Shown piece after piece: positions 24,360 to 39,476 of a stretch of DNA of 55,032 nucleotides. The stretch covers positions 1 through 55,032 of the forward strand of contig DATHVJ010000187.1 in NCBI GenBank assembly GCA_035461345.1, in the 5' to 3' direction. The translations under genes were made by a program, and so were the position numbers. The DNA is from Solirubrobacterales bacterium. GTDB lineage: Bacteria; Actinomycetota; Thermoleophilia; Solirubrobacterales; 70-9. Below the pieces are notes generated by a model. The model ran no database searches. It saw only the letters and a list, made by a program, of their open reading frames with translations, and was not told where the DNA came from. Within the stretch, counting starts at the first letter, position 1. Each line of letters begins with the position of its first letter.

Positions 24360-26324
24360 TCAGGAAGGGGCGTATCTGGGTGAGTCGGCACTAGCCGCCA
24401 GCTCCTCGGGCGGCCACTCCTCCTTCGGGACGCCCGCCAGGTCGTCCCGCACGGACTCGAGCTCCCGCAGGTCGCCGGGGCTCACACCCTCGTCGCGGGT
24501 CAGCCGCTTGGCCATCTGGTCCCGGGTGGCGATCGTCTGGGTCGAGAACAGGTACTCGGCGATCGCCGCGTCGTGCTCGCTGCCCCCGCTCGCGAACGCG
24601 CCCCCCTCCTCGGCCGCCCGCCGCAGCGCCCGCGCCACCCGCTCGGCGCCGTCGTCCGCGCCGACGATCGAGCCTACCTCCTGCAGCGGCAGGCGCTCGA
24701 CGAGCGCCAGCCGCAGCGTCTCGCGGTCGCCGGGCTCGAGGCCCCGCAGTGCGCGCTCGGGGTCGAACTTCGCGGGGCCCCGCCCGATCGCCGTGCGCGC
24801 CATGTGGATCAGCGGCCCTCGGTGGTAGCTCGGGATCACCCCGGTGACGAGCGCCAGCGCCGCCCACGCCGCCAGCAGCGCGAGCCCGAGCGCGATCTGG
24901 GCGACGATCCCCGCGGGATTGATCGCGTAGTAGCCGACCGCGCACGCAGCGGCGAGGATCGCCGCCAGCGCCAGCGACCGGTACGGCATCACGATCGGCT
25001 CCTTGCCGGTCTGAGAGAGGTAGAAGATGTAGGCGCCCGGAGCGGCGAAGGCGAGCATCATCGCCGCGGGCGCGCCCTCGAGCCCGAGCCATGGGATCAG
25101 CGTGAGGCAGCCGATCACGAACAGGACCCCGGCCGCGACCGCCGAGACGACGAAGATCGGCCGCTTGCGCCGGTACTTGGCGGCCTTGTTGACCATCCGG
25201 AAGACGACCGGCGCGATCATCGCCGCCGACATCAGCGGGATCAGCGGCGCGGCGTCCGCGTACGCGGGCGGGGCGAGGCTGACCAGCGGATCGGCGAACA
25301 GGGTGACCGCCAGCAGCGACGCGAGCGTGACCAGCAGGAAGTAGCCGAGCTGCTGGCCGCGGGTGACGTCGGACCCGTACTCCTCCTCCATCGACGCGTA
25401 CGCCATCGTGCGCTTGAGCGGCTTCAGCGCCCTGCGGAAGCCATGCGGCAGCAGCGAGACCACGATCCCGACCCGCTGCGCGAGCGCGAACAGACCCAGG
25501 TCGGCATGGGAGACGTAGCGCGACAGGAAGAAGATCTGGGCCGAGTTGATCGTCCAGAACGACGTGTGGACCGGGATCCGTGGCGAGCCCAGCCGCATGA
25601 TCGTGAGCGCCTCGCGGGGCTCGAAGCGGAGCTCGAAGCTGCCCCGCAGGGCGATCACGGCGAGCACGGTCGAGGCGGCGGTCCCGATCGCTGTGCCTGC
25701 GATTGCGCCCTCCAGGCCGGCGCCGGTGGCGACGAGCGGCACGACAACGGCCAGCACCAGCAGCGGCTGGGCGGACTCCAGGATCACGTACGCGATCGGG
25801 CGCCGCTCCATCCACACGACCCGCGACGCGAGCCGGTAGACCGCGCCCGTGGCGCCCGCGAGCCCGGCCCACAGGACGAGCTCGCGGTCCGCGCCCCCGC
25901 CGAGCAACAGGTCCGCGACCTCGGTCGCGAACACGACGACGAGCCCGGCGCCCAGCAGCGACAGCAGCGTCGTCAGCACGATCCCGGTCCCGAGGCTGCG
26001 CTGGCTCGCCTCGGAAAGCCCGCCGTCATCGTCCTCGTCGTCATCGTCCTCGTCGTCATCGGCCCCGAACACGCGCCTGATCGTGCCCTGCTTGGAGCCG
26101 AGGTTGAAGATCAGCGTCAGCAGCCCGGCGAGGAACAGAAGCAACGCGAGCTGGCCGAACTCGGCGGGGCTGAGCAGGTTCGCAAGCACGATCGTGCTCG
26201 CGAACGCGATCAAGTTGGTGACGACCAGCCCCCCGGTGAAGATCGACGAGTAGCGGATGACCCGGGCGCCGAGGACGGCTCCGCTGCCCCCCGGCCGGGT
26301 TCGATTCCGGCCGCCGTCGCTCAA
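24360..26324 (-). CDS. MOP-superfamily (Wzx-type) polysaccharide flippase-like membrane protein with C-terminal sigma-70 region-4-like tail
   Basis: 654 aa. The Polysacc_synt-like N-terminus is IRYSSIFTGGLVVTNLIAFASTIVLANLLSPAEFGQLALLLFLAGLLTLIFNLGSKQG, followed by about 12-14 TM helices. The tail is LRGLEPGDRETLRLALVERLPLQEVGSIVGADDGAERVARALRRA. A TTG start overlaps the upstream stop (TTGA), but the true start may lie further downstream. Confidence 0.65.
   Translation of the reverse strand: MSDGGRNRTRPGGSGAVLGARVIRYSSIFTGGLVVTNLIAFASTIVLANLLSPAEFGQLALLLFLAGLLTLIFNLGSKQGTIRRVFGADDDEDDDDEDDDGGLSEASQRSLGTGIVLTTLLSLLGAGLVVVFATEVADLLLGGGADRELVLWAGLAGATGAVYRLASRVVWMERRPIAYVILESAQPLLVLAVVVPLVATGAGLEGAIAGTAIGTAASTVLAVIALRGSFELRFEPREALTIMRLGSPRIPVHTSFWTINSAQIFFLSRYVSHADLGLFALAQRVGIVVSLLPHGFRRALKPLKRTMAYASMEEEYGSDVTRGQQLGYFLLVTLASLLAVTLFADPLVSLAPPAYADAAPLIPLMSAAMIAPVVFRMVNKAAKYRRKRPIFVVSAVAAGVLFVIGCLTLIPWLGLEGAPAAMMLAFAAPGAYIFYLSQTGKEPIVMPYRSLALAAILAAACAVGYYAINPAGIVAQIALGLALLAAWAALALVTGVIPSYHRGPLIHMARTAIGRGPAKFDPERALRGLEPGDRETLRLALVERLPLQEVGSIVGADDGAERVARALRRAAEEGGAFASGGSEHDAAIAEYLFSTQTIATRDQMAKRLTRDEGVSPGDLRELESVRDDLAGVPKEEWPPEELAASADSPRYAPS
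26025..26061 (-). repeat. in-frame 15-nt tandem repeat (gtcatcgtcctcgtc x2.5) encoding a poly-Asp/Glu loop in the flippase
   Basis: Read directly from the sequence. It encodes DDDEDDDDEDDD. Confidence 0.8.
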
Positions 26325-27262
26325 ACCGACCAGTGGTCGAAGCTGCGTCCGGTGAACTCCCGCAGCCGGTCGGCGTCCTCGCGAAGCACGGTGATCACCT
26401 CCGGGCTGAGTGCCTCGCGGACGTCGGCCGCGTCGGGGACCTCGATCGGTCGTCGCATGAACATCAGCCGCTGCGCGAACCAGAATCCGCGCGGAAGCTT
26501 GCCGCCGAACACGCGCAGGCCGAGCCTCTCGAGGCGGCGACCGAGCTTGGTCGAGCGGTGCTTGCGGCCGGTGCGGTGGCGCTCCCGGGTGAACCCGGGA
26601 TGCTCGAAGTCGGAATCGACGCCCGCGAAGGAGAGGATCTCCCTCAGGGTCTCGAGCCGGCGCCGGCGAAGGTCCGCCTGATCGACGATCAGGATCTGCT
26701 CGGCGGGAAACCGGTTGAGGAACTGCGTCACCTGCATGAAGTACTGGCTGCGCAGCACGTAGGTGGTGTTGGGGTGCATCACGGTCGCCGCCATGTCGCC
26801 CTTCTCGCGCCGCTTGGCGTAGTTGTGCACCCAGTGCGCCGCGATCCGCGCGACCGGGTCGCGGACGAGGTAGATCATGCGCACGTCGGGCACGAGCGAG
26901 CGCATCCGCTCGGGGACGCCGGCGTGGTGCGGATACGCGGTGTAGTTCGGCGACGCCTCGCCGCGGACGTCAGCGCTGGGGTCGAAGTGGCGCGCGTACC
27001 ACTCGACCCCGCGGTCCCAGTTGCGCTCCTTGATGAAGAAGTTGAGCTCCTTCGGCGTCGACATCGAGATCTGCGGGTGCAGCCCGAGGTAGTAGTGGAG
27101 CCCGCTCGTGCCGCACTTTTGGGCGCCGATGACGATGAGGTTCGGGAGGGACGAAGCGTCGGCAAAGGGCTGGGAATCATTTCCCGCCAAATCCTCCGCT
27201 GCGCGTCCGGTTTGGCGGGGTTTCGGCCGGGACTGTGTTTCTGGTCCCACGGAGGCTTCCAC
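26321..27262 (-). CDS. sulfotransferase (Sulfotransfer_1/heparan-sulfate ST-like family)
   Basis: 5'-PSB loop NLIVIGAQKCGTSGLHYYL. 3'-PB-like IYLVRDPVARIAAHW. Belongs to a different family from the other three sulfotransferase genes. GTG start. Confidence 0.8.
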   Translation of the reverse strand: MEASVGPETQSRPKPRQTGRAAEDLAGNDSQPFADASSLPNLIVIGAQKCGTSGLHYYLGLHPQISMSTPKELNFFIKERNWDRGVEWYARHFDPSADVRGEASPNYTAYPHHAGVPERMRSLVPDVRMIYLVRDPVARIAAHWVHNYAKRREKGDMAATVMHPNTTYVLRSQYFMQVTQFLNRFPAEQILIVDQADLRRRRLETLREILSFAGVDSDFEHPGFTRERHRTGRKHRSTKLGRRLERLGLRVFGGKLPRGFWFAQRLMFMRRPIEVPDAADVREALSPEVITVLREDADRLREFTGRSFDHWSV

Positions 27263-27283
27263 GCGGGCGAGGTTACAAGAGCG

Positions 27284-28810
27284 CTAGACGCGATCCGGCA
27301 GCGCCGGAATCCAGCGCGCGAGATCGCCGCCGGATGCCCCGATCGCCTCGAAACTGCGCGGTGAGCGGCCGGCGAGCGCCTCGCCGAGGCGCCGGCGGAC
27401 GAGCGCGTCGTAGTCGAGACCCGGGAGATGCGCGAGAACGTCCGCACGCGGCGGCACGTACTCGACTACGACCCCGGCGTCGCGCAGGAGCCCGAACGCG
27501 GGCGAGTCGGTCATCACCAGCAGCTGCGCGGGATCGACCCCGTCGGCGAGGAGCGCCTCTAGGCCCGCTCGCAGCTCGTCGACCGAGGCGCCGAGAGCCA
27601 CGCAGGCGATCTCGACCGGCGCGGAGCGGCGGCGCTCGCCGGGGTGGCGAAGCAGCGCGCTGGCTCGGGCGCGGGACTTCGTCGCCCACATCGCCGCGCG
27701 GCCCGGTCGCGGGCTGGGAAGCCCCGCTCGCCCGCCGCCGTCGGAGTCCGCCGCGAGCCCGGACAGCAGCCGCGCGGCCTCGACGGCGCCGTTCCACTCA
27801 CCGAGCTCCCGCGCGCGGGCGGAGAGCCGGGCGCGGAGGCTGGTGTCGAGCATCTCCTCGAGCCGCGCCTCGATCCGCTCCGAGGATGGCCCCTCGCATG
27901 CGAGCGCGAGCCCGGTGCGGTCGGCGTATCGCGCCCGCGCGGCCTGGTCGTCGAGCTCCCGCGGCATCGGCACGAACAGAGTTGGCACCGCGAACCGGAT
28001 CAGCTCGTGGTAGGCGTTGTAGCCGGCGGCGCTGACCGCGAAGTCGAACGCGCGGAAGTAGCGGCTGACCGGGTAGGTGTCGCGCACCAGCGTGACCGTG
28101 TCGGGCACGTCGAGACGGGACGAGATGCTCGACTCGAGCGCCGCGACCTGGACCCCGGGCTCGGCGGCGAGCCGCGCCAGGCAGCGCTGCACCGCGTGGT
28201 CGACGCCCGGTCCCTGGCCCAGCGCCACGAGCACATTGAGCCGACCGGGCTCGAGCCCCAGCGCTCGCTCGGCCTCGTCGCGGGCGAGCAGCTCGGCCTC
28301 GTCGCAGAGCACGATCGGGGCGACGCGCACCGCTTCGGACCGCCTCGCGACCGTGAGTCCGGCGTCGTCGTCCGCGGCGATCTCCCCGGGCTCGAGCACG
28401 AGGTCGAACGCGGCGGCGAGAGCGAGGATCGGACGCCCGCGCCGCGCCCGCCACAGCGGCCGCCGGGACCACACCTTGGTCAGCCCGGGGACGGCGCTCA
28501 TCGCCTCGAGCGCCGCCGGGTACGGGTGTGCTCCGTCGAACACGGCCACGGAAGGGCCGGCGTCGGCGAGCACGCCCGCCAGTCGCGTTCGCAGGCGCCG
28601 GCCCCACTCCAGGTGCGACCCGGCCCCCGGGGTGTCGTAGGAGCCGATGTACTCGACCAGGAACCCCTGCTCGCGAACGACGGGCGCCGCCGCCGACAGG
28701 GTCAGGAACAGCGGCTCGACGCCCGGCTCGAGCCGCCGCGCGATCGCCATGCTGCGGGTCAGGTGACCGAGCCCGGTCCCATTACTAGTCATGAACAGAA
28801 CCCTGTGCAT
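27284..28810 (-). CDS. GT-B fold glycosyltransferase (GT1/GT28, MurG-like) with C-terminal extension of about 170 aa
   Basis: MHRVLFMTSNGTGLGHLTRSMAIARRL is a typical N-terminal Gly-rich loop. C-terminal Rossmann half is VLVALGQGPG ... AAGYNAYHELIRFAVPTLFVPMPRELDDQAARA. Confidence 0.65.
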   Translation of the reverse strand: MHRVLFMTSNGTGLGHLTRSMAIARRLEPGVEPLFLTLSAAAPVVREQGFLVEYIGSYDTPGAGSHLEWGRRLRTRLAGVLADAGPSVAVFDGAHPYPAALEAMSAVPGLTKVWSRRPLWRARRGRPILALAAAFDLVLEPGEIAADDDAGLTVARRSEAVRVAPIVLCDEAELLARDEAERALGLEPGRLNVLVALGQGPGVDHAVQRCLARLAAEPGVQVAALESSISSRLDVPDTVTLVRDTYPVSRYFRAFDFAVSAAGYNAYHELIRFAVPTLFVPMPRELDDQAARARYADRTGLALACEGPSSERIEARLEEMLDTSLRARLSARARELGEWNGAVEAARLLSGLAADSDGGGRAGLPSPRPGRAAMWATKSRARASALLRHPGERRRSAPVEIACVALGASVDELRAGLEALLADGVDPAQLLVMTDSPAFGLLRDAGVVVEYVPPRADVLAHLPGLDYDALVRRRLGEALAGRSPRSFEAIGASGGDLARWIPALPDRV

Positions 28811-28830
28811 CAGATACGGCCGTTCCCGGC

Positions 28831-28864
28831 GGTGACCGCCAAGTTCGCTTGCGAACTTGGCGCC
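28831..28864 (-). repeat. REP-like palindromic repeat, copy B (core only)
   Basis: The reverse complement ggcgccaagttcgcaagcgaacttggcggtcacc matches the cores at 13321, 38997 and 51563. Lies in the 58-nt gap between the glycosyltransferase start and the double-sulfotransferase stop. Confidence 0.75.
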
Positions 28865-28868
28865 TGAT

Positions 28869-30764
28869 TCAACTGCGCTCGTAGGCCGCTATCAGCTGCG
28901 GGGCGCAGTGGACGCCCTCGTCGCGCAGCGCGTCCAGGGTGCGCTCGTACTTGCGCCGCAGCCGCAGTCGCTGCCACCGCGACAGCCCGTTGGGTGAGGC
29001 CGCCCGCTCGCGGTCCGCCGGGCCGAGCCACCGCTCGAGGAACTCGCGCATCGGAGGCTCGTCGTCGATCTCGAGGAAGTCCAGCAGCGCCGCGTACGGA
29101 GGCTCGCGGTCTCCGCTCAGCATCTCGTCCAGCACGAGCACGTGGAGCCGCCGCGTCCCGAGCGAGTAGCTGACGCCGTCCTCCTCGCCCCGGACGGCGC
29201 CGTCGACCGCCCGCAGGCGCTCGGCCCACCAGTCGATCCCGGCGACCGGATCGCCGGGCCCCCAATCGGTTTCCGCGAGCCGGAAGGCCGCGACCCGACC
29301 GTCGCGCACGACGTGCACGAAGCGGGCCTCCTCGAACAGCCGCGCCAGGACCGGCGCGTGGTGGAGGTTGCGGGCGCTCGTCTCGACCAGCCCCGGCTTG
29401 CCGTCGGCCGCCGCGAGGGGCAACAGGAGGTCGTAGAACAGTCCCCTCGACGCCGCCAGGGGATCGTCGAGGTAGGACGAGGAGAAGCGCTCCACCGCGG
29501 CCTCGAAGCGGTCCGCGGGGACGACCTGGTCGAGCCGGCCGCGTCCCGACCCCTCGCCGCCTCCCCACCAGATCTCGCGCAGCTTGAGCAGGAACCGCTT
29601 CAGGCTCACACGGCCCTCGATCAGGTCGCCGATCCCGTCGGTGTCGCAGTGGAAGCGGGCGTCGATCGGCACGACCGCGTAGCGCGACCCGCTGCCGAGC
29701 AGCTGGGCGACCATCTGCGCCCCGCGCCGGGCGCGGCCGGGGCCGGCGAGGAATACGAGGTCGCGCGACTCCGGCATCCCGGCGGCCGGCTGCGCGGAGG
29801 CCGGCTCCGCGGCGAGCTCGGCGTCGGCCCGGGACGCCGACGGCGTCGCCGCGGCGTCGCGGGTCGGCGCCGCGCGCTCCAGCGTGTGGCGAAGCAGCCC
29901 GGCGCAGTGCACCCGGTTGCGCTCGAGACGCTCGAGCGCGTCCACGTACCGGGTCATGTACGTCTCCTGATCTTCCTCCGACAGCCCCTTCCGCCACCGC
30001 TCGCGGTGGGCGCGCTCGGGGCTCATCTTGGTCTCGAAGTAGGAGCGCATCTCGAGCTCGTCCTCGAAGCCGACGCCGTCGAGCAGCTCGCGGTAGGTGC
30101 GCTCGCGGTCCCCGTACACGAGCTCGTCGAGGCTGATCACCGTCAACCGGTCCGCCGGGATGTGCTTCACCGCCCGGTCGATCCGGCGCAGCCGGCCCTC
30201 CCACCACTCGATCCCCTGCTCGGGGTTGCGCGGATAGACGACGCCGCGTCCCTTCGCCACCCGCGAGGACGCGGCGTCGCGGCCGTCGCGAACCGTGTGC
30301 ACGAAGCGGGCGTCGGGGAACACCCGCAGCAGCGCGGGGCCCTGGGCGACGGTGTCGCAGCTCATCTCGACGAGGCCGGGCTTGCCGGCCTCGGTGGCGA
30401 TCGGGCCCAGGAGATCGAAGAACAGGCCGCGGCAGGCTGCCTCGGGGTCGTCCTCGTAGGCGGACTCGAACGCGGCGATCGCGCCCTCGAAGCGCTTGCG
30501 AGGCACGTTGCGATGCAGCCCACGCACGCGGCGACGGTGGACGCTGCGCCACCACCCGGGCACGCGCCGCCACCACGTCGAGCGCAGCGTGGCGACGAAC
30601 TCGTCGACGCTCACGGTCCCGTCGAGCAGGTCGGGGAATCCGCCCGGGTCGCTGTGGAATCGGACCTCGTTGCTGACGTTCTCGAAGCCCGAGTTCCGGC
30701 CCAGCAGCTTGGCGAGGACGTGGGTGCCGCTGCGGCCCGTGCCGCCTACGAAGATCGTCTTCAT
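28869..30764 (-). CDS. tandem double sulfotransferase (intact N-terminal domain + degenerate C-terminal domain)
   Basis: 631 aa. Domain 1 has FVGGTGRSGTHVL and VRDGRDAASS. Domain 2 is collinear, but its loops read FLAGPGRARRGAQMV and VRDGRVAAFR. An Ala/Pro-rich linker of about 40 aa joins them. Confidence 0.8.
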   Translation of the reverse strand: MKTIFVGGTGRSGTHVLAKLLGRNSGFENVSNEVRFHSDPGGFPDLLDGTVSVDEFVATLRSTWWRRVPGWWRSVHRRRVRGLHRNVPRKRFEGAIAAFESAYEDDPEAACRGLFFDLLGPIATEAGKPGLVEMSCDTVAQGPALLRVFPDARFVHTVRDGRDAASSRVAKGRGVVYPRNPEQGIEWWEGRLRRIDRAVKHIPADRLTVISLDELVYGDRERTYRELLDGVGFEDELEMRSYFETKMSPERAHRERWRKGLSEEDQETYMTRYVDALERLERNRVHCAGLLRHTLERAAPTRDAAATPSASRADAELAAEPASAQPAAGMPESRDLVFLAGPGRARRGAQMVAQLLGSGSRYAVVPIDARFHCDTDGIGDLIEGRVSLKRFLLKLREIWWGGGEGSGRGRLDQVVPADRFEAAVERFSSSYLDDPLAASRGLFYDLLLPLAAADGKPGLVETSARNLHHAPVLARLFEEARFVHVVRDGRVAAFRLAETDWGPGDPVAGIDWWAERLRAVDGAVRGEEDGVSYSLGTRRLHVLVLDEMLSGDREPPYAALLDFLEIDDEPPMREFLERWLGPADRERAASPNGLSRWQRLRLRRKYERTLDALRDEGVHCAPQLIAAYERS

Positions 30765-30862
30765 CGCCGAGGAAGGATAGGCGTCACGCTCTCGTGGTCG
30801 TCGGGCTGCAGCCGGCGCTCGGCGCGCAGCTAACGGGCGAACACCGTGTTGTAATCACGACG

Positions 30863-32080
30863 ATGGGGGACGGACGTCGAACCAGGGCCGGCAGGATCGG
30901 CCGCGGCACCGCGGCGCTCGCGATCGGCGTGTGCGGGCTCGCGACGGGCTCCGCGGTCGCCGTCGAGCGCGCCACGGCGCAGAGCGGGTCCGATCACGTG
31001 CTCGTCGCCACGACCGGCAACGCCTCGGAGCTGCGCGAGTCGATCCCGATCACCCGCACCGAAGCGAAGAAGCCGCGGGTTGTGATGTCCCTGCGCCCAG
31101 ACCAACTCCCCAGCCTCGGCTCGGGCGACAGGCTGAAGGCGACGGCGGAGGTCGAGGTGACCACGGACTGCTACGAGCGGATGCCGCGCTGCGTCGGCAA
31201 CCCCTACACCTACGCACCGATCGCCAACGCCCGGATCGTGCTCGCCAACGGGCCGTTCGTGACCGGGCCCGAGAACGCGGTCGAGCTCGGCGCGAAGCGG
31301 GTCAAGTGCCGGCAGAAGCCGCCGGACCGCGTCCACCACTGCATGTTCGTATTCAGGGACGACGAAGCGGCGCTCGACATCGCCAGCCGCGGCGAGCTCC
31401 CGTGCGCGGCTTCGAACTGCCACCTGAACCTCGTCGTCGACTCGTTCAGCACGCGCAAGAAGAAGGGCAAGGAGGGCAGGCGCAACAGGCTGCTGATCGG
31501 CGAGGACGAGCCCGACGGGAGCGTCGGCCACGACAAGGGGCGGCTGAACGCGATCCGGTTCTCGCCCGGGAACCAGCCGCCGGTGGGGCCGGTCCGTACG
31601 CTCACGCCCCTGGTGACCGAGACCCCGATCGACAAGGGCCGGCGGGCGGTGGTCTACTCCCAGGAGCTGACCGGGCTGAAGGAAGGCGACCAGCTGGTCG
31701 CCAACGCCCTGCTCAGCACGAGCATCGCCCACCTCGACTACGTCGTGCAGATGGGCTCGCGGCTGATCATCGCCGACAGCCCGACGGCGACCGGTCCCGG
31801 CAAGCCGGGCAAGAAGTACACCGATCCGCCGGGCGAGATCACAGAGTCGAACGGGTACAACTGCACGCAGCGCAGCCCGGCATGCACCACGTACAAGACC
31901 GGGGTGATCACGATCAGCAGCGACGCCGAGACCGGGAAGGGCGACCCGGTCCCGCTGTACGCCAACTACGTGTTCAAGAGCGCGAAGCCCGGCTCCCAGG
32001 CGCCGTCGGGGGACAGGGTCCTGATCGTCCCGGGCGGGGGCCTCGAGATCACGCGCTACCCCGCGAGCATGAGGGGCTAG
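30863..32080 (+). CDS. secreted Cys-rich protein of unknown function
   Basis: Internal ATG 30863 of track ORF 30794..32080. Signal-like GRGTAALAIGVCGLATGSAVAVERATAQ. Eight Cys in the mature part. Basic patch STRKKKGKEGRRNR. No family recognised. It is the only plus-strand gene of the locus. Confidence 0.55.
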   Translation: MGDGRRTRAGRIGRGTAALAIGVCGLATGSAVAVERATAQSGSDHVLVATTGNASELRESIPITRTEAKKPRVVMSLRPDQLPSLGSGDRLKATAEVEVTTDCYERMPRCVGNPYTYAPIANARIVLANGPFVTGPENAVELGAKRVKCRQKPPDRVHHCMFVFRDDEAALDIASRGELPCAASNCHLNLVVDSFSTRKKKGKEGRRNRLLIGEDEPDGSVGHDKGRLNAIRFSPGNQPPVGPVRTLTPLVTETPIDKGRRAVVYSQELTGLKEGDQLVANALLSTSIAHLDYVVQMGSRLIIADSPTATGPGKPGKKYTDPPGEITESNGYNCTQRSPACTTYKTGVITISSDAETGKGDPVPLYANYVFKSAKPGSQAPSGDRVLIVPGGGLEITRYPASMRG

Positions 32081-33534
32081 CCGGCTCCCGGCCGGCAAGC
32101 GACTCCCGCGCAGTCCCTCAGCGCCTCGAGCCGCTCGGCGAGCCGCGCCCGGACGCGTGAGTAGCGCCGATCGTCGGCGACGTTGCGGAGTTGGTGGGGA
32201 TCGCGGTGGAGGTCGTATAGCTCGACGGGCCCGTTCTCGTGCTCGACGTAGACGAAGCGGTCTGTGTGGACGCCCACGAACTTATGCTTTGTGAGCATCT
32301 CCAGGAGCAGCGTGCGTTTCGATCCCGTGGCAGAGTCATTGGCAACAGGGACAAGCGACGCCCCGTCGAGCTCCTCGGACGCTCGCACGCCCGTCACCTC
32401 CAGGATCGTGGGGGCGAGGTCGACATTGGCCGATGGCTGATGGCGCTTCGCACCCGCCGGGAACCCGGGCCCGGCGATCACCAGCGGCGCTCGGATCGCC
32501 TCCTCGTACTGGCTCGCCTTGCCCCGGACCCGATGCTGTCCGAGCAGGTAGCCGTTGTCGGACGTGAACAGGAATAGGGTGTCCTCGAGCTCGCCCGCGC
32601 GTCGCAGCGCGCCCACGAGGTCGGCGACCATCTCGTCTACGGCCAGCAGGCTCTCCAACCGACTGCGGTATGCCCGCTCCATCTGCTCGATCGCCGTCGG
32701 ACTCAACCGAGGCACATTTCGCACCCGAGGTGGCTTGTCTTCAATCGCCGCTTCGTCGAAGGACGCTGGTCGCGGCAGCGGCTGATCCGAGAACGTACCG
32801 CGGTGACGCGGAGCGGGACGCGGGTTTCGTGCCGCGTCAACGCCCTCGAGCACCCCCTCGTCATGCGGGGCCAGCGTGGCCACGCTGAGGAAGAAGGGCC
32901 GTCCCCTACCGGCCTCCTCTTCGACGAACCCCACGGCCTTTCGCGCGAGGACGTCCGTCTGGTAGTCGCGCGGGCGGGAACCGTAATCCCGTAGGTCCCC
33001 GTTCTCGTTCAGGGTGTAATTGAACATCTGGAACTCCGTGTCCAGGACTGGCACCTCCCACACGTCCCACCCAGGCGGGACCTCCTTCGGATCTCCCGGA
33101 TGGTTCGGCGCCCCGTAGTTGTTCAGGTAGCGACCGATGTGAGCCGTTCGGTAGCCGGCTTGGCGCATCCACACCGCCAGGGTGTCGGAGCCGTCGAACG
33201 CCTGAAAGCCTCCGTCGGGCAACCTGTTGCCGAGGACCTCGTGGTTGTGCGAGTACTTCCCGGTCAGGAAGCTGGCGCGGGACGGACAGCACAGAGGCGT
33301 GGTCGCGAAGAACTCCCTGAAGGTGGTTCCCCTTCTCGCCATCCGCGCGACATGTGGCAGGAAGCGCACAGATTCCGCCTCTTGGTCATCGGTCATCACG
33401 ACGACCACGTTCCGCGAGCGAGGGGGCGCCGAGCTCTCCTCTGACTCGCCGCATCCGGCCGCGTTCAAGCCGGCGAGAGCGATCAGCGCGACTGCGGCTA
33501 CGATCACCGCAAGAGGCCAGGACGAGCGACGCAT
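32077..33534 (-). CDS. exported Cys-type sulfatase (arylsulfatase / N-acetylglucosamine-6-sulfatase-like), probable lipoprotein
   Basis: Signal plus lipobox-like LNAAGC. VVVVMTDDQ metal site. Formylglycine motif TTPLCCPSRASFLTGKY. Also FTSDNGYLLGQHR. Confidence 0.85.
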   Translation of the reverse strand: MRRSSWPLAVIVAAVALIALAGLNAAGCGESEESSAPPRSRNVVVVMTDDQEAESVRFLPHVARMARRGTTFREFFATTPLCCPSRASFLTGKYSHNHEVLGNRLPDGGFQAFDGSDTLAVWMRQAGYRTAHIGRYLNNYGAPNHPGDPKEVPPGWDVWEVPVLDTEFQMFNYTLNENGDLRDYGSRPRDYQTDVLARKAVGFVEEEAGRGRPFFLSVATLAPHDEGVLEGVDAARNPRPAPRHRGTFSDQPLPRPASFDEAAIEDKPPRVRNVPRLSPTAIEQMERAYRSRLESLLAVDEMVADLVGALRRAGELEDTLFLFTSDNGYLLGQHRVRGKASQYEEAIRAPLVIAGPGFPAGAKRHQPSANVDLAPTILEVTGVRASEELDGASLVPVANDSATGSKRTLLLEMLTKHKFVGVHTDRFVYVEHENGPVELYDLHRDPHQLRNVADDRRYSRVRARLAERLEALRDCAGVACRPGAG

Positions 33535-33546
33535 CGCGGCGCGACG

Positions 33547-34482
33547 CTAGGCCGGCGCCCGCTCGTAGGTGCGGCGCAGCTCGGCGGCGCCCTCGACCCC
33601 GTCGGCGGCGAGGCGGTCGAGCGCGTCCTCGTACCGGCGCCGCAGCTCCTCCTGGGCCTCGTCGGAGAGCCCTGTGCGCCAGCGATCGCGATGCGCGTTC
33701 TCCGCGATGACGTGGCGGTCGAAACAGGCGCGGATCTCCGGCTCGTCCTCGAGCTCGAGGAACTGGAGCAGGCGACGGTAGGTGTCCTCGCGGTCGCCGT
33801 ACGCGAGCTCGTCGAGGCTGATCGTGAGCAGCCGATCCGGTGGGATCTCGCGTGCCGCGGCGTCGATCCGCCGCAGCCGCCGCTCCCACCACCTCAGGCC
33901 CTCGAAGCCGTCGCGCGGGTGCTCGCGCTTCTGCCGCTTGCCGACCTTGGAGGCGCCCGCGTCGCGGCCGTCGCGCACGGTGTGGATCAGCCGCGCGTCG
34001 GGGAACACCTCGAGCAGGGTCGGCCCCTCGGCGACGTTGTCGGAGCTCATCTCGACGAGTCCCGGCTTGCCCGCCTCGGCCGCCAGCGGCCCCAGGAGGT
34101 CGTCGAACAGCGCCCGGCACGTGCGACGGGGATCGGAGCCGTACGCGGCCTCGAACTTCCCCACCGCCGCGTCGAACCGATTCCGCGGGACGACCTTGTA
34201 CAGGCCGCGCTCCTCACGGCCCAGCGGCAGCCTCGGCAGCAGCGCCGGGAAGGGCTCCCCAGCCTTGATCCGGTGCCACCAAAACCGGCGCAGCTTGCGC
34301 ACGAACTGGGCGAGCGTGACGCGGCCCCCGAGCAGGTCCGGGAACCCGCGCGGGTTGCAGTGGAAGCGTGCCTCGATCTCGACGTCGCGATACCGCGAGT
34401 GGTGGCCGAGCAGCCTCGCGAGCACGTGCGTGCCGCTGCGCCCGGTGCCGCCGACGAACACGTGGTCGAGCTCCCTTGTCAC
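33547..34482 (-). CDS. sulfotransferase family protein (paralog of 1092..2081 and 28869..30764)
   Basis: FVGGTGRSGTHVLARLL and VRDGRDAGAS. A GTG at 34480-34482 gives a 10-nt gap to the upstream gene. The track ATG at 34566 would overlap that gene by 74 nt. Confidence 0.8.
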   Translation of the reverse strand: MTRELDHVFVGGTGRSGTHVLARLLGHHSRYRDVEIEARFHCNPRGFPDLLGGRVTLAQFVRKLRRFWWHRIKAGEPFPALLPRLPLGREERGLYKVVPRNRFDAAVGKFEAAYGSDPRRTCRALFDDLLGPLAAEAGKPGLVEMSSDNVAEGPTLLEVFPDARLIHTVRDGRDAGASKVGKRQKREHPRDGFEGLRWWERRLRRIDAAAREIPPDRLLTISLDELAYGDREDTYRRLLQFLELEDEPEIRACFDRHVIAENAHRDRWRTGLSDEAQEELRRRYEDALDRLAADGVEGAAELRRTYERAPA

Positions 34483-34492
34483 GAGGACAAGG

Positions 34493-36841
34493 CTAGCCCT
34501 CGACCCGGTAGCGGTCGACGTAGCGACCGCAGGCGTCGCCGAGCGCCTCCGTCCTCGTTTTCGCAACCGGCGTGAGCGCGATCGCGCCGAGCCATGTGCG
34601 CCGCTCTACCCGCAGCAGGCGCTGGAGCCAGCTCCGCTCGGGCTGGCGGATCGAAACCCGCGCCCGCTCCCCGCGCTCGACGTCGATCGTCCCCGCGGGC
34701 CAGAACTGCCCCTCTCCGGGGGCGAAGCCGAACATCCCGTCGAGCGACGCGGGGAGCGCGACGTCCGTCACCCCCGGCGCCTCGACCTCGAGCGCGACGG
34801 GGCTGTGGTACTGGAGCGAGACCGCCCACTCGCCTCGCTCGAGATCGAACGACTGCGCGGCGGATCCCCCGGTGGTGAACGAGCTCGACGGCCGCCAGCG
34901 ACGCTTCGGCCCGACGACCGGCTCGGGCGCCACCGTGGCGAGACCGGACCGCCGCGCGGTGCCCCTCCCCGCCCGGCGGGCGCAGTCGAGGACCGCGCCC
35001 GGCGCATCCGGGGGCTCGATCACCTCCTGCGGCGCAACCTCGCCCTGCCGCCTCCACAGCGTGTAGGACGGCGTCGACGCCATACGCTCGAACTCGGGCG
35101 GCGGAGCGCTCGCGTACGCGGCGTTGGTCGTGATCACGTAGCGGAACCGGTTGAGCGTGTCGTGTGTGACGGAGTCGAAGTCCAGCGCCCGGCCCTGGTC
35201 CCACCGCTTGCCGTCGCGGGGCTTGACGTCGCGGCTCGGCACGTAGCCTCCCGGGCTGCCGACCAGCGCCCCGCGCAGCCGGTACGGCGCGAAGCGGTCG
35301 GCCGCCAGCACGAGCACGCGCTCGCCCTCGACCACGTCGCGCAGGCTCTCGAGCTCGCCGGCCCGCTGCTCGGTCCCCACCGGCGCGGCGCGCAGCGCCA
35401 GCAGAGTCGAACCGGCGGCGCCGAGGGTGAAGACGACGGCGAGCGCGGCGACCTGGGCACGCCACGGCGTCCGCCAGTCGGTCGCCAGCAAGGGGCGTAG
35501 CAGAAACAGCATCGCGACCGGCGCCATCACCGCCAGCGCCTTCGCCTCGACGTGGATCCCGCCGCGCCACCGGGCTCCCGCGTACACGAGCACCGCGGCG
35601 ACGAGGGCAGCGGGCACCGCGTAGTCGCGGCGGCGCGTCCACCACCACGCGGCCACCGCCGCGGCGGCGAGCGCGACAAGGGTCGCCACCAGGGCGTCCA
35701 CCTCGCCGGCGACGTCGGCCCTGAAGTCGCCCGCCGGCCAGATCCCGAGCGCCTCACGCGGCGAGACGGAGCTGATCAGCCGTCCCGTCGAGGCCTGGAT
35801 GTCGCCGAAGCGATCGATGAAGCCCGACAGGCTCCCGGCCTGGGCGATCGCGACCACCGCGAGCACCGCGGCCGCGGCGGCGAGCGCGGGCCACGCGGGC
35901 CGAACGGCGGCGGCCAGCTCGCCGGCGGAGGTCCTGAGGCGCCCGGCGGCGAGCTCGAGGCCGAGCCAGATCGTCGCCGCCGCGAGCGGCCACACCAGCG
36001 CGGCGAGGCTGAACGTGAGCACTGCGGCCAGCGCGAGCACCCCGAGCGCGAACAGGCTCGCGGCGAGGGGACGCCGATTCCCCGAGCCTTCCCCGACCGC
36101 GCGATCTGCTTGCAGATCGCGCGCCTCGTGAAGCGCCACCGCCGTCCCGACCAGGAACAGCGCCATCGCCGTCTCCTTGAACGCGCTCTGTGCCAGGAAC
36201 GAGGCGGCGAGGTACGGCAGTCCGACGAGCGCCGCCGCGATCGCGCGGCGGATCGGCGGCAGGTCGCGCAGCACGGCGAGCGCCGCAAGAGCGGTCAGCA
36301 CCGGGATCGCGAGCAGGATCCCGTTGAAGGCCGTCTCCACCGACGCCCCCGTCCCCTCGGCGAGCGCCGCCGCCAGCGATTGCAGGCCGAGCGGGTACCC
36401 GAGCTCGATCCCGCGTGGCTCGGGCCCGAACCCCGTCGCGAGCCACTCGCTCCAGAACAGCTGCGCCGCGTGATCGTTGGTGTAGATCCCCTCGCCCAGG
36501 ACCCCGACCCGTCCGCTGATCGCGAACGGGATCGAGGCCGCGACCAGCACGATCAGCGCCGCCGGCAACGCCTCGCGAGCAAGGCCCGCCGCATCGACCC
36601 CCCGCGGCCGCCTCGACGCGAACACGAGCGCGCCGAGGAGCAGCACCCCGATCGCGATCGCGGCAGTGAGCCCCCTTCCCGGGAGCCGCACCACCGGCTG
36701 CGCCACCACGACGAGGGCGGCGAGGCCGACGGGGGCCGCGAGCCAGCTCCACTCGCGGCCTCCGAGCGCGGCCAGCAGCGCGCGGCCGGCGACCAGGGAC
36801 GCGGCGCATACCAGCGCCGCCAGCGCCCAAACGGCGATCAC
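34493..36841 (-). CDS. very large polytopic membrane protein with extracytoplasmic C-terminal domain of about 300 aa (GT-C-like candidate)
   Basis: 782 aa. GTG start. More than 12 hydrophobic helices. Soluble tail from about FDSVTHDTLNRFRYVITTN onward. Lies 9 nt from the next GT-C-like gene. Function is inferred from architecture and context only. Confidence 0.45.
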   Translation of the reverse strand: MIAVWALAALVCAASLVAGRALLAALGGREWSWLAAPVGLAALVVVAQPVVRLPGRGLTAAIAIGVLLLGALVFASRRPRGVDAAGLAREALPAALIVLVAASIPFAISGRVGVLGEGIYTNDHAAQLFWSEWLATGFGPEPRGIELGYPLGLQSLAAALAEGTGASVETAFNGILLAIPVLTALAALAVLRDLPPIRRAIAAALVGLPYLAASFLAQSAFKETAMALFLVGTAVALHEARDLQADRAVGEGSGNRRPLAASLFALGVLALAAVLTFSLAALVWPLAAATIWLGLELAAGRLRTSAGELAAAVRPAWPALAAAAAVLAVVAIAQAGSLSGFIDRFGDIQASTGRLISSVSPREALGIWPAGDFRADVAGEVDALVATLVALAAAAVAAWWWTRRRDYAVPAALVAAVLVYAGARWRGGIHVEAKALAVMAPVAMLFLLRPLLATDWRTPWRAQVAALAVVFTLGAAGSTLLALRAAPVGTEQRAGELESLRDVVEGERVLVLAADRFAPYRLRGALVGSPGGYVPSRDVKPRDGKRWDQGRALDFDSVTHDTLNRFRYVITTNAAYASAPPPEFERMASTPSYTLWRRQGEVAPQEVIEPPDAPGAVLDCARRAGRGTARRSGLATVAPEPVVGPKRRWRPSSSFTTGGSAAQSFDLERGEWAVSLQYHSPVALEVEAPGVTDVALPASLDGMFGFAPGEGQFWPAGTIDVERGERARVSIRQPERSWLQRLLRVERRTWLGAIALTPVAKTRTEALGDACGRYVDRYRVEG

Positions 36842-36850
36842 GCGCGCACC

Positions 36851-38944
36851 CTATTCACGCCCCCGCTCGCAGCTCGCCGGGTCGAGATCGCCGTCGATCG
36901 CGAACACCGACACGTCCTCGTCGCGAACGATCTCCTCGGCCTCGGGGGCGGCGCGCGTCCACCCCGCCTCGGGTGGCTCGTCCGGGCGCGTCCCCACTCC
37001 CTCGGTCGGCTCGCGGAAGCCGGTGACCACGTATCCGTAGTCGCCGTCGTCGAGCGCCTGAAGCCATTGCTCGCAGCTCGTGACGGGCTCGAACGAGCCG
37101 TCCGGCCCTCGGACGCCGATGAACTCGACCCGGTTCGACAGATCGGTCCCGTACAGCGGGTGCTGGCGCGCGATCACGGTCGCAATGCGGGCGTCCTCGA
37201 CCCCGCGTGCCCACATGAACGCCGAGTCCTCCGGATTCCCGCCGGCGCGGGTCTCGTAGCGGCCCTCGAGGTACGTGCGCTGGGCGTGATAGCCGAGGCC
37301 GACCCCGATCCCGACGATCAGGGCGAGCGCCGGGCCGATCGCCCGCCGAGGCAGGCGCCCAGCCCGCGCTGCCCAGGCGAGGGCCCCCGCTGCGGCGGCC
37401 GCGGCGCCGCCGGCTAGAGCGGCGCGGGCGGACACCACCCCAACCACCTCGTCGGAGCCGAGCGCCGCGACCGCGCCGGCGACCACGAGCCCCCCGAGGC
37501 CGAGCGCGCGCCACCGCGGCCCCCACCTGGTCGCGAGGATCGGCACCAGCGCGACCGCGAGCGCGAGGACGGGAGCGAGGTAGCGCAGGTTGGACGCGAA
37601 GCCGACCGGCATCCCGTCGGGCCCGGACGCCGACAGGGGCGTGAACGGGTACACGGCGGCCGAGGCGACCGCGGTCCACCCGAGTACCCGCTCGACGGCC
37701 GAGCGTCCTCGCGCCAGGCAGCCCACGGCGCCGACCACGGCCAGCGCGAGCACGAGCGGCCACAGCGCGCCGAAGCGCTCGTCGAGCGCCGGAAACAGCC
37801 ACTCGCTCCACACGCCGGTGTCGGTCGCGTAGCCGATCAGGGCATGGGGCTCGCGGGTCCCGGAGAGATAGTCCTCGGGGCCGGGCAGCGCCACCGGGCC
37901 GAGCGAGGACGCCCACGGGAGCGGGTTGCCGACGTGGGCGAGGTTGCGCGCGAACCAGAACCCGCCCCCGGCGAGGAGCGCGCCCACCCACGCGCCGCTC
38001 GCCGCGACACGGCGCCCCGCCGGAGCGGCGACGATCACGCCCACGGTCAGGGCGAGCGCCGGCGCCGCCAGATTGAGCTTCGTCCCGACCGCGAGGCCCG
38101 CGGCGAGGCCGGCGAGCGCGACCGGGGCGGCCGCCGAGCTCAGATACGGCTGCGCACGGGAGCGAGCGGCGTTGGCGAGCAGCGCCGCGGCAGCGAGCAG
38201 GAAGAAGGTGGCGACGATGTCGTTGCGGGCCTCGCCGGGCTGGTCCGCGTACACACCCGAGGCGAGCACGACGCCGACCGCGACGACCGTCCACGGGGCC
38301 GTTCCCCACGGGCGCCCAAGGCACCACGCCGCGAGAAGCGTCGCCGCGAGCCACCCGAGGTTGAGGAACGGGGACAGGATGTCGCGCTCGGTGAGCAGGA
38401 TCCCCGCCGTGTGGAAGAGCTCCGAGTTCGCCGGGTAGAACCACGTCAGCAGCGCCGGGGAGGTGAAGTGGAGCGCGGTGAGCGAGCCCTCCTGCGCGAA
38501 CCGCGCCGCGAACGGCATGTGGTACCAGAGGCTGTCGAAGCCGTACATGCCGTACAGCAGCGTCGGGTAGGCGCGTCCCGACCACTCGGCGAACAGCGCC
38601 ACCGTGACGAGCGCCGCGACCGCCACCCCCCCGCGGCCGGGCGGGAGCGCGGGCGGCGCCTGGGCGTCGGATGGCATTGGCCGCGGGGACGCCGCCAGGC
38701 CCAACCCGAGGCCCACCGCGACGCACAGTCCCACGAGCGGCACCTCCTCGAGCCACCCGACCGTGCCCAGCGCCTCCATCGACCACACAAGCAACACGAG
38801 CGCGACGACCAGCTCCGCGAGCCGCGCCGGCGCGCCGGACCATCCCGGCAGCAGCCGCGCCCGGACGCGGTACGCTCCCCAACCGAGCGCGGCCGCGATC
38901 ACGGCGAGCTCGATGACGCCGACGGCGTAGCTCGCTAGCGACAT
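36851..38944 (-). CDS. polytopic membrane protein, GT-C-like (PMT/ArnT-type) glycosyltransferase candidate
   Basis: 697 aa. ATG start. Many TM helices plus a C-terminal soluble domain (YLEGRYETRAGGNPEDSAFMWARGVEDARIATV...). Loop after the early TMs reads YGMYGFDSLWYHMPFAARF. Confidence 0.5.
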   Translation of the reverse strand: MSLASYAVGVIELAVIAAALGWGAYRVRARLLPGWSGAPARLAELVVALVLLVWSMEALGTVGWLEEVPLVGLCVAVGLGLGLAASPRPMPSDAQAPPALPPGRGGVAVAALVTVALFAEWSGRAYPTLLYGMYGFDSLWYHMPFAARFAQEGSLTALHFTSPALLTWFYPANSELFHTAGILLTERDILSPFLNLGWLAATLLAAWCLGRPWGTAPWTVVAVGVVLASGVYADQPGEARNDIVATFFLLAAAALLANAARSRAQPYLSSAAAPVALAGLAAGLAVGTKLNLAAPALALTVGVIVAAPAGRRVAASGAWVGALLAGGGFWFARNLAHVGNPLPWASSLGPVALPGPEDYLSGTREPHALIGYATDTGVWSEWLFPALDERFGALWPLVLALAVVGAVGCLARGRSAVERVLGWTAVASAAVYPFTPLSASGPDGMPVGFASNLRYLAPVLALAVALVPILATRWGPRWRALGLGGLVVAGAVAALGSDEVVGVVSARAALAGGAAAAAAGALAWAARAGRLPRRAIGPALALIVGIGVGLGYHAQRTYLEGRYETRAGGNPEDSAFMWARGVEDARIATVIARQHPLYGTDLSNRVEFIGVRGPDGSFEPVTSCEQWLQALDDGDYGYVVTGFREPTEGVGTRPDEPPEAGWTRAAPEAEEIVRDEDVSVFAIDGDLDPASCERGRE

Positions 38945-38965
38945 CTCAAGACCACCCCGCGAGCG

Positions 38966-39058
38966 CGGACGCGAGAGCGAGCGAGTAAGGAACGACGCGC
39001 CAGGTTCGCAAGCGAACCTGGCGGTGGTCAGCGGGCAGTGAGCGAGCGGGAGCGGAGC
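38966..39058 (+). repeat. REP-like repeat, copy C (long form, about 93 nt; palindromic core 38997-39029)
   Basis: Consists of cggacgcgagagcgag, about 15 nt of spacer, gcgccaggttcgcaagcgaacctggcggtggtc, about 10 nt of spacer, then gagcgagcgggagcggagc. It is collinear with the reverse complement of 51533-51625, including an identical 16-mer. Confidence 0.75.
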
Positions 39059-39070
39059 ACGTCGCGGGTG

Positions 39071-39403: not shown

Positions 39404-39476
39404 GCACGAGCCTTCGCTCCGCGCCGCGTCGCGCCTGCCCTCGTCGCCCGCCCTGCAACCACGATTGCAGGAGCGG

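Follow-up and report, generated by a model that had tools for sequence, protein, structure and literature searches.

Sulfated glycoconjugates are well documented in few bacterial groups, namely in the capsular polysaccharides of cyanobacteria and some marine bacteria, in rhizobial Nod factors and in mycobacterial sulfolipids. Here we analyze a gene cluster at positions 24360-38944 of a 55,032-nucleotide stretch of DNA (the window) from a Solirubrobacterales bacterium (assembly GCA_035461345.1, contig DATHVJ010000187.1). The cluster is predicted to encode sulfotransferases (STs), a GT-B glycosyltransferase, a flippase of the MOP (multidrug/oligosaccharidyl-lipid/polysaccharide) superfamily, two GT-C membrane proteins and a sulfatase. 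With modest confidence, we favor the reading that the locus represents a pathway shared across the Thermoleophilia/Solirubrobacterales lineage, whose product would be a lipid-anchored envelope saccharide with several sulfate groups.

The closest characterized system is the synechan cluster xss of Synechocystis PCC 6803 (PMC8205485). Like the present cluster, xss combines STs of two subfamilies, of the type that uses 3'-phosphoadenosine 5'-phosphosulfate (PAPS), with a Wzx-type flippase and glycosyltransferases, and its sulfation is presumed to take place on the lipid-linked unit in the cytoplasm, as we propose here. However, xss is plasmid-borne and contains two STs, eight glycosyltransferases including the primer, Wzy and a polysaccharide co-polymerase (PCP), whereas our cluster has one GT-B enzyme, three to four ST domains, optional GT-C genes and no Wzy, PCP or primer, and it occupies a chromosomal core site across an order. 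Sulfotransfer_3 (PF13469) genes also sit in cyanobacterial polysaccharide clusters (PMC8205485). The closest system within the phylum is wps-1 of Actinoplanes missouriensis (PMC13390465, 2026), whose glycan is predicted only. It shares with our locus two STs of different families, one of them of the heparan-sulfate type like ST1 below, and a Wzx protein, but it has a canonical Wzx/Wzy/Wzz set, a glycoside hydrolase, a methyltransferase and a kinase, and lacks STs resembling tyrosylprotein sulfotransferases (TPSTs), the GT-C pair and a pseudo-ST domain. As of 2026, a sulfated polysaccharide has merely been predicted in an actinomycete (PMC13390465).

That sulfate can be present at the carrier stage, ahead of GT-C transfer, has a precedent in the sulfated N-glycan pathway of Halobacterium salinarum, in which a sulfated oligosaccharide is found on the carrier and then transferred by the GT-C enzyme AglB (PMC8674786), the top structural match of our GTC2. 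That pathway is archaeal and uses a dolichol carrier, its STs are unidentified, and GTC1 and GTC2 lack the oligosaccharyltransferase (OST) motif WWDxG. Three-component or ArnT-type extracytoplasmic glycosylation follows the same logic of a lipid-linked sugar made inside, flipped, and transferred outside by a GT-C enzyme, but the known systems use a GT2 synthase with small GtrA or ArnE/F flippases and no sulfated donor, in contrast to the GT28-type GT-B enzyme and MOP flippase found here. The mycobacterial AftA/Emb enzymes are likewise actinobacterial, and GTC1 has AftA as its best structural match and carries a domain like the carbohydrate-binding module (CBM)-type domains of Emb, but no sequence-level homology was detected. 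Mycobacterial sulfolipid-1, sulfated by Stf0, demonstrates that sulfated envelope glycolipids exist in the phylum; our locus has no MmpL, polyketide synthase or acyltransferase genes, and the ST families differ, since Stf0 presumably belongs to a Pfam family other than those of the locus STs. In the literature, no paper was found on sulfotransferases together with Solirubrobacterales or Thermoleophilia, and nothing relevant on sulfate activation and wall polymers in this lineage. The locus is set apart by STs that resemble TPSTs, by a pseudo-ST domain that has been maintained, by having a MurG-like enzyme as its only glycosyltransferase besides the GT-C partners, and by a fixed core-genome position. 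Such an architecture is unlike that of the established Wzx/Wzy, ABC and synthase pathways.

The cluster is conserved well beyond the window. Homologs of its two-domain ST (ST2x) all come from Solirubrobacterales/Thermoleophilia metagenome-assembled genomes (MAGs) and soil metagenomes. A scan of relatives with one genome per species (80 of 366 relatives kept) gave 79 loci, which were mapped by tblastn; the counts below rest on the 51 loci (Thermoleophilia MAGs) that span the interval from eno to the flippase. The GT-B enzyme, ST1, the flippase and at least two ST3-type units are present in every one of them (51/51), and in every one the core sits at the same site, between eno/ftsB and csrA/SNase/GCS2. 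The core consists of two to three TPST-like Sulfotransfer_3 units, the GT-B enzyme, a heparan-type ST and the MOP flippase, encoded by co-directional genes that overlap or are separated by short gaps. In locus L002, the order is DivIC, GTC2, GTC1, ST, 2xST, GT-B, ST1 and flippase, all overlapping or adjacent. The cluster is a vertically inherited, order-level feature. The original prediction, made from the letters of the window, had described a glycan sulfation island, but horizontal acquisition of the whole 14.6 kb is rejected by the GC content of the locus (0.69-0.75, similar to that of the flanks) and by the fixed site. Synteny is conserved, no mobility genes are present at the locus, and only a 2.8-kb sulfatase segment, discussed below, behaves as an insertion.

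These comparisons bear on a secreted sulfated exopolysaccharide like synechan, made by a Wzx/Wzy-dependent system whose primer, polymerase and co-polymerase would lie elsewhere in the genome. The combination of a Wzx-type flippase with STs of two families does fit the pattern of xss and wps-1, and O-antigen clusters commonly depend on a distal WecA. Yet none of the 51 loci carries Wzy, PCP or further glycosyltransferases, while exopolysaccharide clusters typically encode many of the latter, eight in the case of xss; a fixed core-genome site beside ftsB across an order is unlike the variable exopolysaccharide islands; and GT-C enzymes are foreign to Wzy-dependent systems. We rejected an assignment to the Wzx/Wzy pathway, with no primer, Wzy or PCP/Wzz in the window or the 51 related loci, and consider the synechan-like explanation improbable.

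The ST proteins of the window all pass Pfam above the gathering score (27 bits for Sulfotransfer_3, PF13469; 22 bits for Sulfotransfer_1, PF00685). ST3 (33547-34566, - strand, with a likely GTG start at 34482) scores 76 bits against PF13469 (5.8e-21) and has both PAPS motifs intact, FVGGTGRSGTH in the 5'-phosphosulfate-binding (PSB) loop and VRDGRDAGAS at the 3'-phosphate-binding (3'PB) site. ST2x (28869-30764, - strand, 631 aa) matches the same family in two stretches (86 bits, 6.2e-24) and has two ST domains. Its N-terminal domain (29865-30764, - strand) contains FVGGTGRSGTH and VRDGRDAASS, invariant in alignment A1. The C-terminal domain (28869-29762, - strand) has LAGPGRARRGAQ in place of VGGTGRSGTH, and its 3'PB position reads VRDGRVAAFR, versus VRDGRDAASS in the active domain. 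ST1 (26321-27262, - strand) scores 57 bits against PF00685 (2.6e-15), also passes the gathering score of Sulfotransfer_3, and matches 3rnl, the heparan sulfate (HS) 3-O-sulfotransferases 3-OST-1/5 and N-deacetylase/N-sulfotransferase (NDST) in the PDB at 1e-15 to 1e-12. It carries the motifs GAQKCGTS, EASPNY, which aligns to the 3-OST catalytic-Glu motif EKTPAY, and RDPVAR. By these matches, ST1 is a predicted carbohydrate-type, heparan-sulfate 3-OST/NDST-like sulfotransferase of a family different from that of ST3, ST2x and ST0, a family difference that the original prediction had already noted. ST0 (1092-2081, + strand), the satellite ST that lies 22 kb from the cluster, proved to be a Sulfotransfer_3 protein as well (65 bits, 1.6e-17), with intact motifs FVGGTQRSGTH and IRDGRDVACS.

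The count of ST domains had to be lowered. Where five had been claimed in the three genes of the cluster, Pfam and motifs give four, one of them degenerate, so that the total in the window is five and not six. The locus thus probably encodes three STs able to catalyze transfer from PAPS, namely ST3, ST2x through its N-terminal domain, and ST1. The degenerate state of the ST2x C-terminal domain is confined to the clade of the window (L004-L009); the orthologous unit elsewhere keeps both motifs, and a more distant two-domain homolog (P0044) has both ST domains intact. Within the clade, pairwise identity is 80% for the C-terminal and 79% for the N-terminal domain. Because the former is conserved as much as the active domain, it appears to be a maintained pseudo-sulfotransferase and not a decaying copy. 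A census of the related loci found 182 ST3-type domains in which both the PSB loop and the 3'PB motif are intact. Together with the intact motifs of ST3, ST2x-N, ST1 and ST0, this retention implies selection for PAPS use.

The flippase (24360-26324, - strand) matches Polysacc_synt (PF01943) at 38 bits (cut-off 28.2) and Polysacc_synt_3 (PF13440) at 35 bits (cut-off 23), and its hydropathy profile has about 12-14 hydrophobic segments. These results bear out the earlier call of a MOP/Wzx-type flippase and assign the protein to the Wzx/Polysacc_synt type of the MOP superfamily. A predicted cytoplasmic C-terminal tail of about 160 aa (residues about 495-654; 24360-24840) is conserved, also in locus L083, and has a sub-threshold Sigma70_r4 match (E=0.019), a hint that this MOP transporter carries a helix-turn-helix (HTH)-like module.

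A variant of the cluster occurs in a cultured organism. The complete genome of the Thermoleophilia bacterium SCSIO 60948 (locus L083; CP053031.1) carries an ST, the GT-B enzyme, ST1, the flippase, the small protein described below, CsrA, SNase and GCS2 in this order, and a divergent arm that adds three Sulfotransfer_3 genes, a further gene of the ST1 type, genes for two sulfatases and a GT2 gene. Loci L058 and L060 are arranged much like it. In SCSIO 60948, a single open reading frame (ORF) of 1040 aa (L083:13694-16816) comprises a MOP flippase fused to an ST3-like domain, and six further ST genes lie at the locus. The fused domain has a degenerate PSB loop (LTGADTTGPA) and keeps the 3'PB motif (VLRDGRDLAAS). 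As judged from this fusion, the ST family appears physically tied to the flippase and hence to its membrane-bound substrate.

Next to the flippase, and divergent from it, lies a gene for a small conserved protein of 168 aa (23809-24315, + strand), which occupies the same position in the related loci examined and in SCSIO 60948; its association with the cluster is one of synteny only. The protein has no Pfam match. In alignment A8, the mean column identity is 56%. The N-terminus looks HTH-like, DLRDEIEAEIEA is invariant, and an acidic linker of variable sequence and a stretch of 7-9 Arg residues are present along with a C-terminus with FDHG...GLWLDPA...VYxEHW, including an invariant Tyr in DDPVYxEHW.

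This protein and the affinities of the main ST family raise the alternative that TPST-like STs sulfate tyrosines of an envelope or secreted protein or peptide, with the glycan genes acting on the same target or being separate neighbors. A profile of 30 ST3-type sequences found TPST1/2 as by far the nearest solved structures (E about 1e-14), well ahead of the next, the CurM ST at 0.006, and the family shares with the TPSTs the PSB loop, the 3'PB motif and an E-x-R region that aligns to the catalytic Glu. In addition, the always-adjacent 168-aa protein offers an invariant Tyr in an acidic context. However, since the PDB holds few Sulfotransfer_3 structures, the nearest-solved match says little about the substrate of the ST3-type enzymes, and TPSTs are eukaryotic Golgi enzymes acting on proteins, whereas the STs here would be cytoplasmic enzymes in a glycan/flippase setting. 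The ST genes are embedded with tiny gaps between the GT-C genes and the GT-B/flippase genes, an ST-like domain is fused to the flippase in SCSIO 60948, and PF13469 genes are common in polysaccharide clusters. The 168-aa protein has no signal peptide and looks nucleic-acid-binding, with its poly-Arg run and HTH-like part, and the window contains no peptide precursor, PCAT or ABC exporter. Tyrosine sulfation is therefore very unlikely in our view.

The GT-B glycosyltransferase (27284-28810, - strand, 508 aa) is the sole cytoplasmic glycosyltransferase in the invariant core (51/51 loci). As a single sequence it stays below the Pfam cut-off for Glyco_tran_28_C (20.6 bits versus 22), and it scores 31.5 bits (8.7e-8) against the NCBIfam murG model, whose equivalog cut-off is 250. 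A profile of 32 orthologs finds MurG as its best PDB match (E=2.5e-5), followed by GT1 enzymes, and the motifs SNGTGxGHLxR (SNGTGLGHLTR in the window), AAGYNxxHEL and DDQxARA are invariant in the orthologs and align to MurG; they cover the G-rich loop (GxGxGH) near the N-terminus and the nucleotide-sugar motif of the C-terminal half, with its conserved Glu and Gln. A search of 1.84 billion representative proteins returned 741 clusters at E<1e-30; many of these relatives are proteins of 700-1100 aa that carry the GT-B domain at the C-terminus. Sampled relatives reach 27-34 bits for Glyco_tran_28_C, above threshold, and have N-terminal GT4-like domains fused to them. The earlier designation as a GT-B glycosyltransferase, for which the Pfam match alone is sub-threshold, is supported by the ortholog profile and by the family relatives, and we assign the enzyme to the predicted GT28/MurG type. 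Its GT-B part spans residues about 3-353 and is followed by a conserved C-terminal domain of about 150 aa, which has no family match. MurG proper, which converts lipid I to lipid II, was considered and rejected: the score is far below the equivalog cut-off, the 150-aa domain is extra, and the genomic context is one of STs and a flippase.

GT28_C-type enzymes such as MurG and Alg13/14 act on membrane lipid-linked acceptors, and the nature of the acceptor separates our preferred reading from its strongest competitor. In this alternative, the product is a sulfated glycolipid or lipoglycan: the GT-B enzyme would glycosylate a glycerolipid (diacylglycerol or phosphatidylinositol-like), as do monogalactosyldiacylglycerol (MGDG) synthases and UgtP, the STs would sulfate the head group and the MOP protein would flip it. 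The GT-C enzymes, where present, would extend it into a lipoglycan, as PimE/Mpt/Emb take phosphatidylinositol mannosides (PIMs) to lipomannan (LM) and lipoarabinomannan (LAM) in mycobacteria. Such a pathway needs only one glycosyltransferase. It accounts for the absence of primer, Wzy and PCP from all 51 loci and for the 21 loci that do without the GT-C pair; moreover, GT28 includes glycolipid synthases, and the best GT-C matches are the actinobacterial envelope enzymes AftA, AftB, AftD and Emb. But the GT-B enzyme has no match to the MGDG_synth N-terminal family, its best solved match MurG acts on a polyprenyl-PP substrate, and its relatives carry fused GT4-like domains, an arrangement typical of enzymes that assemble oligo- or polysaccharides. 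MOP/Wzx transporters are known for polyprenyl-linked substrates, and the known glycolipid flippases belong to other families. We regard a sulfated glycolipid as rather unlikely, although it has a real chance of being correct.

The GT1 matches of the GT-B profile, OleD and SsfS6 (E about 0.005-0.08), which are natural-product enzymes, would also suit a small molecule that is glycosylated, sulfated and then exported by a MOP transporter of MATE-like type, as would the weak MatE match of the SCSIO 60948 flippase. Against this, the window contains no scaffold-biosynthesis genes, the Polysacc_synt match of the flippase is above threshold, GT-C partners are present, and vertical conservation across an order at a housekeeping locus is unlike natural-product clusters. 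A natural-product role is highly improbable.

Two large membrane proteins, GTC1 (34493-36841, - strand, 782 aa) and GTC2 (36851-38944, - strand, 697 aa, third-codon-position GC content (GC3) 0.93), had been called GT-C-like. Neither has a significant sequence or profile match to PDB sequences; GTC1 has no Pfam, NCBIfam or PDB sequence match, and GTC2 has a sub-threshold PMT match, with PF02366 present on some close homologs. An hhalign comparison of the two families (probability 11%) detects no kinship between them. Because sequence and profile searches were empty, the fold had to come from structure models. The AlphaFold models of GTC1 (pLDDT 83.9, pTM 0.86) and GTC2 (pLDDT 85, pTM 0.90) match almost solely GT-C enzymes in Foldseek (probability about 1.0, TM-score 0.31-0.46), with AftA (3.8e-7), PglB, EmbB and OST as top matches of GTC1 and AglB, STT3, AftB, ALG9, Pmt4, AftD, EmbB/C and PglB as those of GTC2. 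The earlier call is thus confirmed by structure models and not by sequence, and both proteins are predicted to have a GT-C fold. GTC1 ends in a beta-sandwich that matches CBM6/35/61 in Foldseek, and GTC2 in a small alpha/beta domain. Neither contains the OST motif WWDxG (searched as W[WYF][DE]xG or WW[DE]); invariant acidic residues lie in loops after early helices (D137 in GTC2, E117/D123 in GTC1), in a topology that is predicted only.

GTC2 and GTC1 are found in 30/51 loci, and the other 21 have neither gene. The pair is accessory to the conserved core, and the original prediction went too far in treating it as integral to the pathway. In L069, an extra GT-C of the PMT_2/PMT family (L069:8501-9958, - strand; Pfam 2.2e-14) separates GTC2 from the ST genes, while GTC1 is now found after ST1, from which we conclude that GT-C content at the locus is plastic. 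Two GTC2 paralogs are present in L010, L014, L034 and L073.

The sulfatase (32077-33534, - strand) matches the Pfam family Sulfatase (PF00884; 166 bits, 1.9e-48) as well as SGSH_C. It has the formylglycine motif CCPSR at residue 82 and a lipobox-like LNAAGC signal, in agreement with the lipoprotein-type sulfatase predicted originally, and its best PDB match is the GlcNAc-6-sulfatase 5g2v (9.6e-41). We therefore assign it as a putative exported, lipoprotein-type formylglycine sulfatase of the carbohydrate-sulfatase type. Its neighbor, an exported protein without family assignment (ORF 30794-32080, + strand, GC3 0.95), likely starts at the ATG at 30863; this protein (30863-32080) has no Pfam or NCBIfam match. 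One N-terminal hydrophobic segment agrees with the earlier description as secreted, while "Cys-rich" amounts to 9 Cys in 428 aa, of which 8 form four close pairs.

Both genes had been counted as members of the pathway, which the related loci contradict. Neither lies inside the cluster in any of the 51 loci; at this spot the pair occurs only in the window and in its closest relative L004 (89% ST2x identity), and homologs of the + strand gene are limited among the related loci to L001, from the same organism, and L004. Between the window and L004, the two genes of the pair are 68% and 76% identical, compared with 83-90% for their neighbors, and the GC3 of the sulfatase is 0.82 against 0.92-0.95 in neighboring genes. 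Since the pair is common only to the window and L004, is less conserved than its neighbors and has a sulfatase of lower GC3, it appears to have been inserted recently, as a 2.8-kb segment that interrupted an ancestral operon, and it stands outside the conserved system. The two sulfatases of SCSIO 60948 are 43-45% identical to the window sulfatase. Carbohydrate-type sulfatases appear to have joined the cluster at least twice independently, once in the window/L004 lineage and once in L060/L083.

What the analysis shows are the folds and families of the proteins, the state of their motifs, the strict co-conservation of the core at one chromosomal site, the flippase-ST fusion and the insertion. 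We then propose a model for the pathway, all biochemical steps of which are inferred from gene content. At the cytoplasmic face, the GT-B enzyme would glycosylate a lipid-linked acceptor, most likely a polyprenyl-(P)P-sugar supplied by a priming enzyme from another part of the genome. ST3, ST2x-N and ST1, perhaps with ST0, would then sulfate different positions using PAPS, while the degenerate C-terminal domain of ST2x would probably serve as a non-catalytic binding or scaffold module. The MOP flippase would carry the sulfated lipid-linked unit to the outer face. There, GTC1, with its CBM-like domain, and GTC2 may use or extend the flipped unit on a wall polysaccharide, lipoglycan or protein acceptor, in a step that would resemble ArnT-type or OST-type transfer from a lipid-linked donor. 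The exported GlcNAc-6-sulfatase-like enzyme would be a late sub-lineage add-on that trims or recycles sulfate esters.

We favor this model because the family assignments, the intact PAPS motifs, the 51/51 co-occurrence and the flippase-ST fusion all point to it; because GT28_C-type enzymes use lipid-linked acceptors and the GT-B relatives are fused to GT4-like domains; because GTC1 best matches AftA and has a CBM-like domain, and GTC2 best matches AglB/STT3; and because carbohydrate-type sulfatases have been linked to the cluster twice independently. The component assignments of the original prediction (STs, GT-B enzyme, two GT-C proteins, MOP flippase and formylglycine-type sulfatase) hold by Pfam, profiles and structure models. 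Its pathway idea of cytoplasmic sulfation, flipping and outer processing is strengthened by the co-conserved core and the fusion, but not as a self-contained island.

Several observations weigh against the model. The window and 1.6 Mb of related loci yielded no gene for a priming phosphoglycosyl transferase, Wzy, PCP/Wzz, an LCP ligase, a polyprenyl-phosphate sugar synthase or PAPS synthesis. Searches by tblastn with E. coli CysC, CysD and WecA sequences and a core peptide of the formylglycine-generating enzyme (FGE) found nothing in the window and 82 loci, and neither FGE nor the anaerobic sulfatase-maturating enzyme (anSME) is encoded in the window or the related loci. That the window lacks a primer, PAPS-synthesis genes and FGE had been stated originally, and the 1.6 Mb of related loci give the same picture in these tblastn searches. 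The locus has just one cytoplasmic glycosyltransferase, whose likeness to MurG is remote (E=2.5e-5), and its main ST family is nearest to protein-tyrosine STs, not glycan STs. The lack of GT-C genes in 21/51 clusters means that the outer transfer step is not universal or is encoded elsewhere. The product and the lipid intermediate are predictions from gene content.

It is tempting to go one step further, though we consider the following extension doubtful. Thermoleophilia/Solirubrobacterales, actinobacteria that abound in soil, may universally build an anionic envelope glycoconjugate based on sulfate esters, a functional counterpart of the phosphate-based teichoic acids. Its pathway would resemble no characterized one: TPST-like STs would have been repurposed to sulfate three to four positions of a lipid-linked saccharide. 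The MurG-like GT-B enzyme and the MOP flippase would parallel the lipid II route, next to ftsB; the pseudo-ST domains, whether joined to an ST or to the flippase, would act as recognition or "gatekeeper" modules; and the GT-C enzymes would transfer the sulfated donor outside. If true, this would be a new type of Gram-positive anionic wall polymer and would widen the substrate range of TPST-like enzymes. Such a polymer could also be a microbial source of soil ester-sulfate, with a bearing on its origin and turnover. Conservation at a core site across a largely uncultured order of soil Actinomycetota implies that sulfation is a basic envelope trait and not an accessory one, and the variant in the cultured SCSIO 60948 makes the hypothesis directly testable.

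Genes in the window, which has a G+C content of 72%, were called by GC3, which backs each gene listed for the locus. The gene junctions measure -4, 21, 58, 12, 10 and 9 nt, in keeping with the original statement that most are overlaps or gaps of 9-21 nt. The + strand ORF 30794-32080 overlaps the sulfatase gene tail-to-tail by 4 nt, and a head-to-head gap of 98 nt separates it, with its start at 30863, from ST2x. Because this gene converges on the sulfatase gene and diverges from ST2x, the region contains at least three transcription units instead of the one or two operons suggested before. Around the insertion, consensus scans found nothing that resembles a promoter, and sites resembling terminators were no more frequent than expected by chance.

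On one side, the cluster is flanked by mfd, a SurA-like peptidyl-prolyl isomerase (PPIase) gene, eno and ftsB/divIC, and on the other by the conserved small protein, csrA, SNase, GCS2 and rhomboid genes. The FtsB/DivIC homolog (39074-39403, - strand) was found by tblastn with the DivIC of L002, to which it is 67% identical over 108 aa; PF04977 is annotated on the matching genes of L002 and L003. This gene marks the upstream limit of the cluster, with eno beyond it, in a conserved arrangement. ORF 38946-39458 (- strand), the longest between GTC2 and eno, was rejected as an Arg-rich artefact in the wrong frame, the real FtsB/DivIC gene lying in another frame.

Some further features were observed in and around the related loci. 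Most of the extra genes in L073, L068, L069 and L074 are inserts that have nothing to do with the cluster, such as those for an antiporter, an ABC-2 transporter and purine metabolism; the PMT_2-type GT-C of L069 is the one exception. The CsrA homolog of the window (23403-23642, - strand; Pfam 3.9e-26) has the same position in L002, L003 and SCSIO 60948; proteins of this family are uncommon among Actinomycetota. The interval from the SurA-like gene to eno contains an ORF of 649 aa without a Pfam match (41166-43115, + strand, GC3 0.83), overlapped by a long antisense ORF (41457-43472); relatives carry MazG and RibD_C genes there. At 13486-14940 (+ strand), an extracytoplasmic function (ECF)-type sigma factor has regions 2 and 4 in its first 190 aa and an unmatched extension of about 290 aa, which may be a fused anti-sigma or sensor domain. 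Beside ST0 are two polytopic membrane proteins of about 570 aa each (2123-3835, + strand; 3940-5676, - strand), for which Pfam gives no match and hhalign no link to either GTC1 or GTC2. For the second gene, the longest ORF extends to 6147 and into ppx, so that it probably overstates the true length. The satellite pair is kept in L078 beside a GT2 and a methyltransferase gene, which suggests another membrane glycosylation module, with an unproven tie to the cluster.

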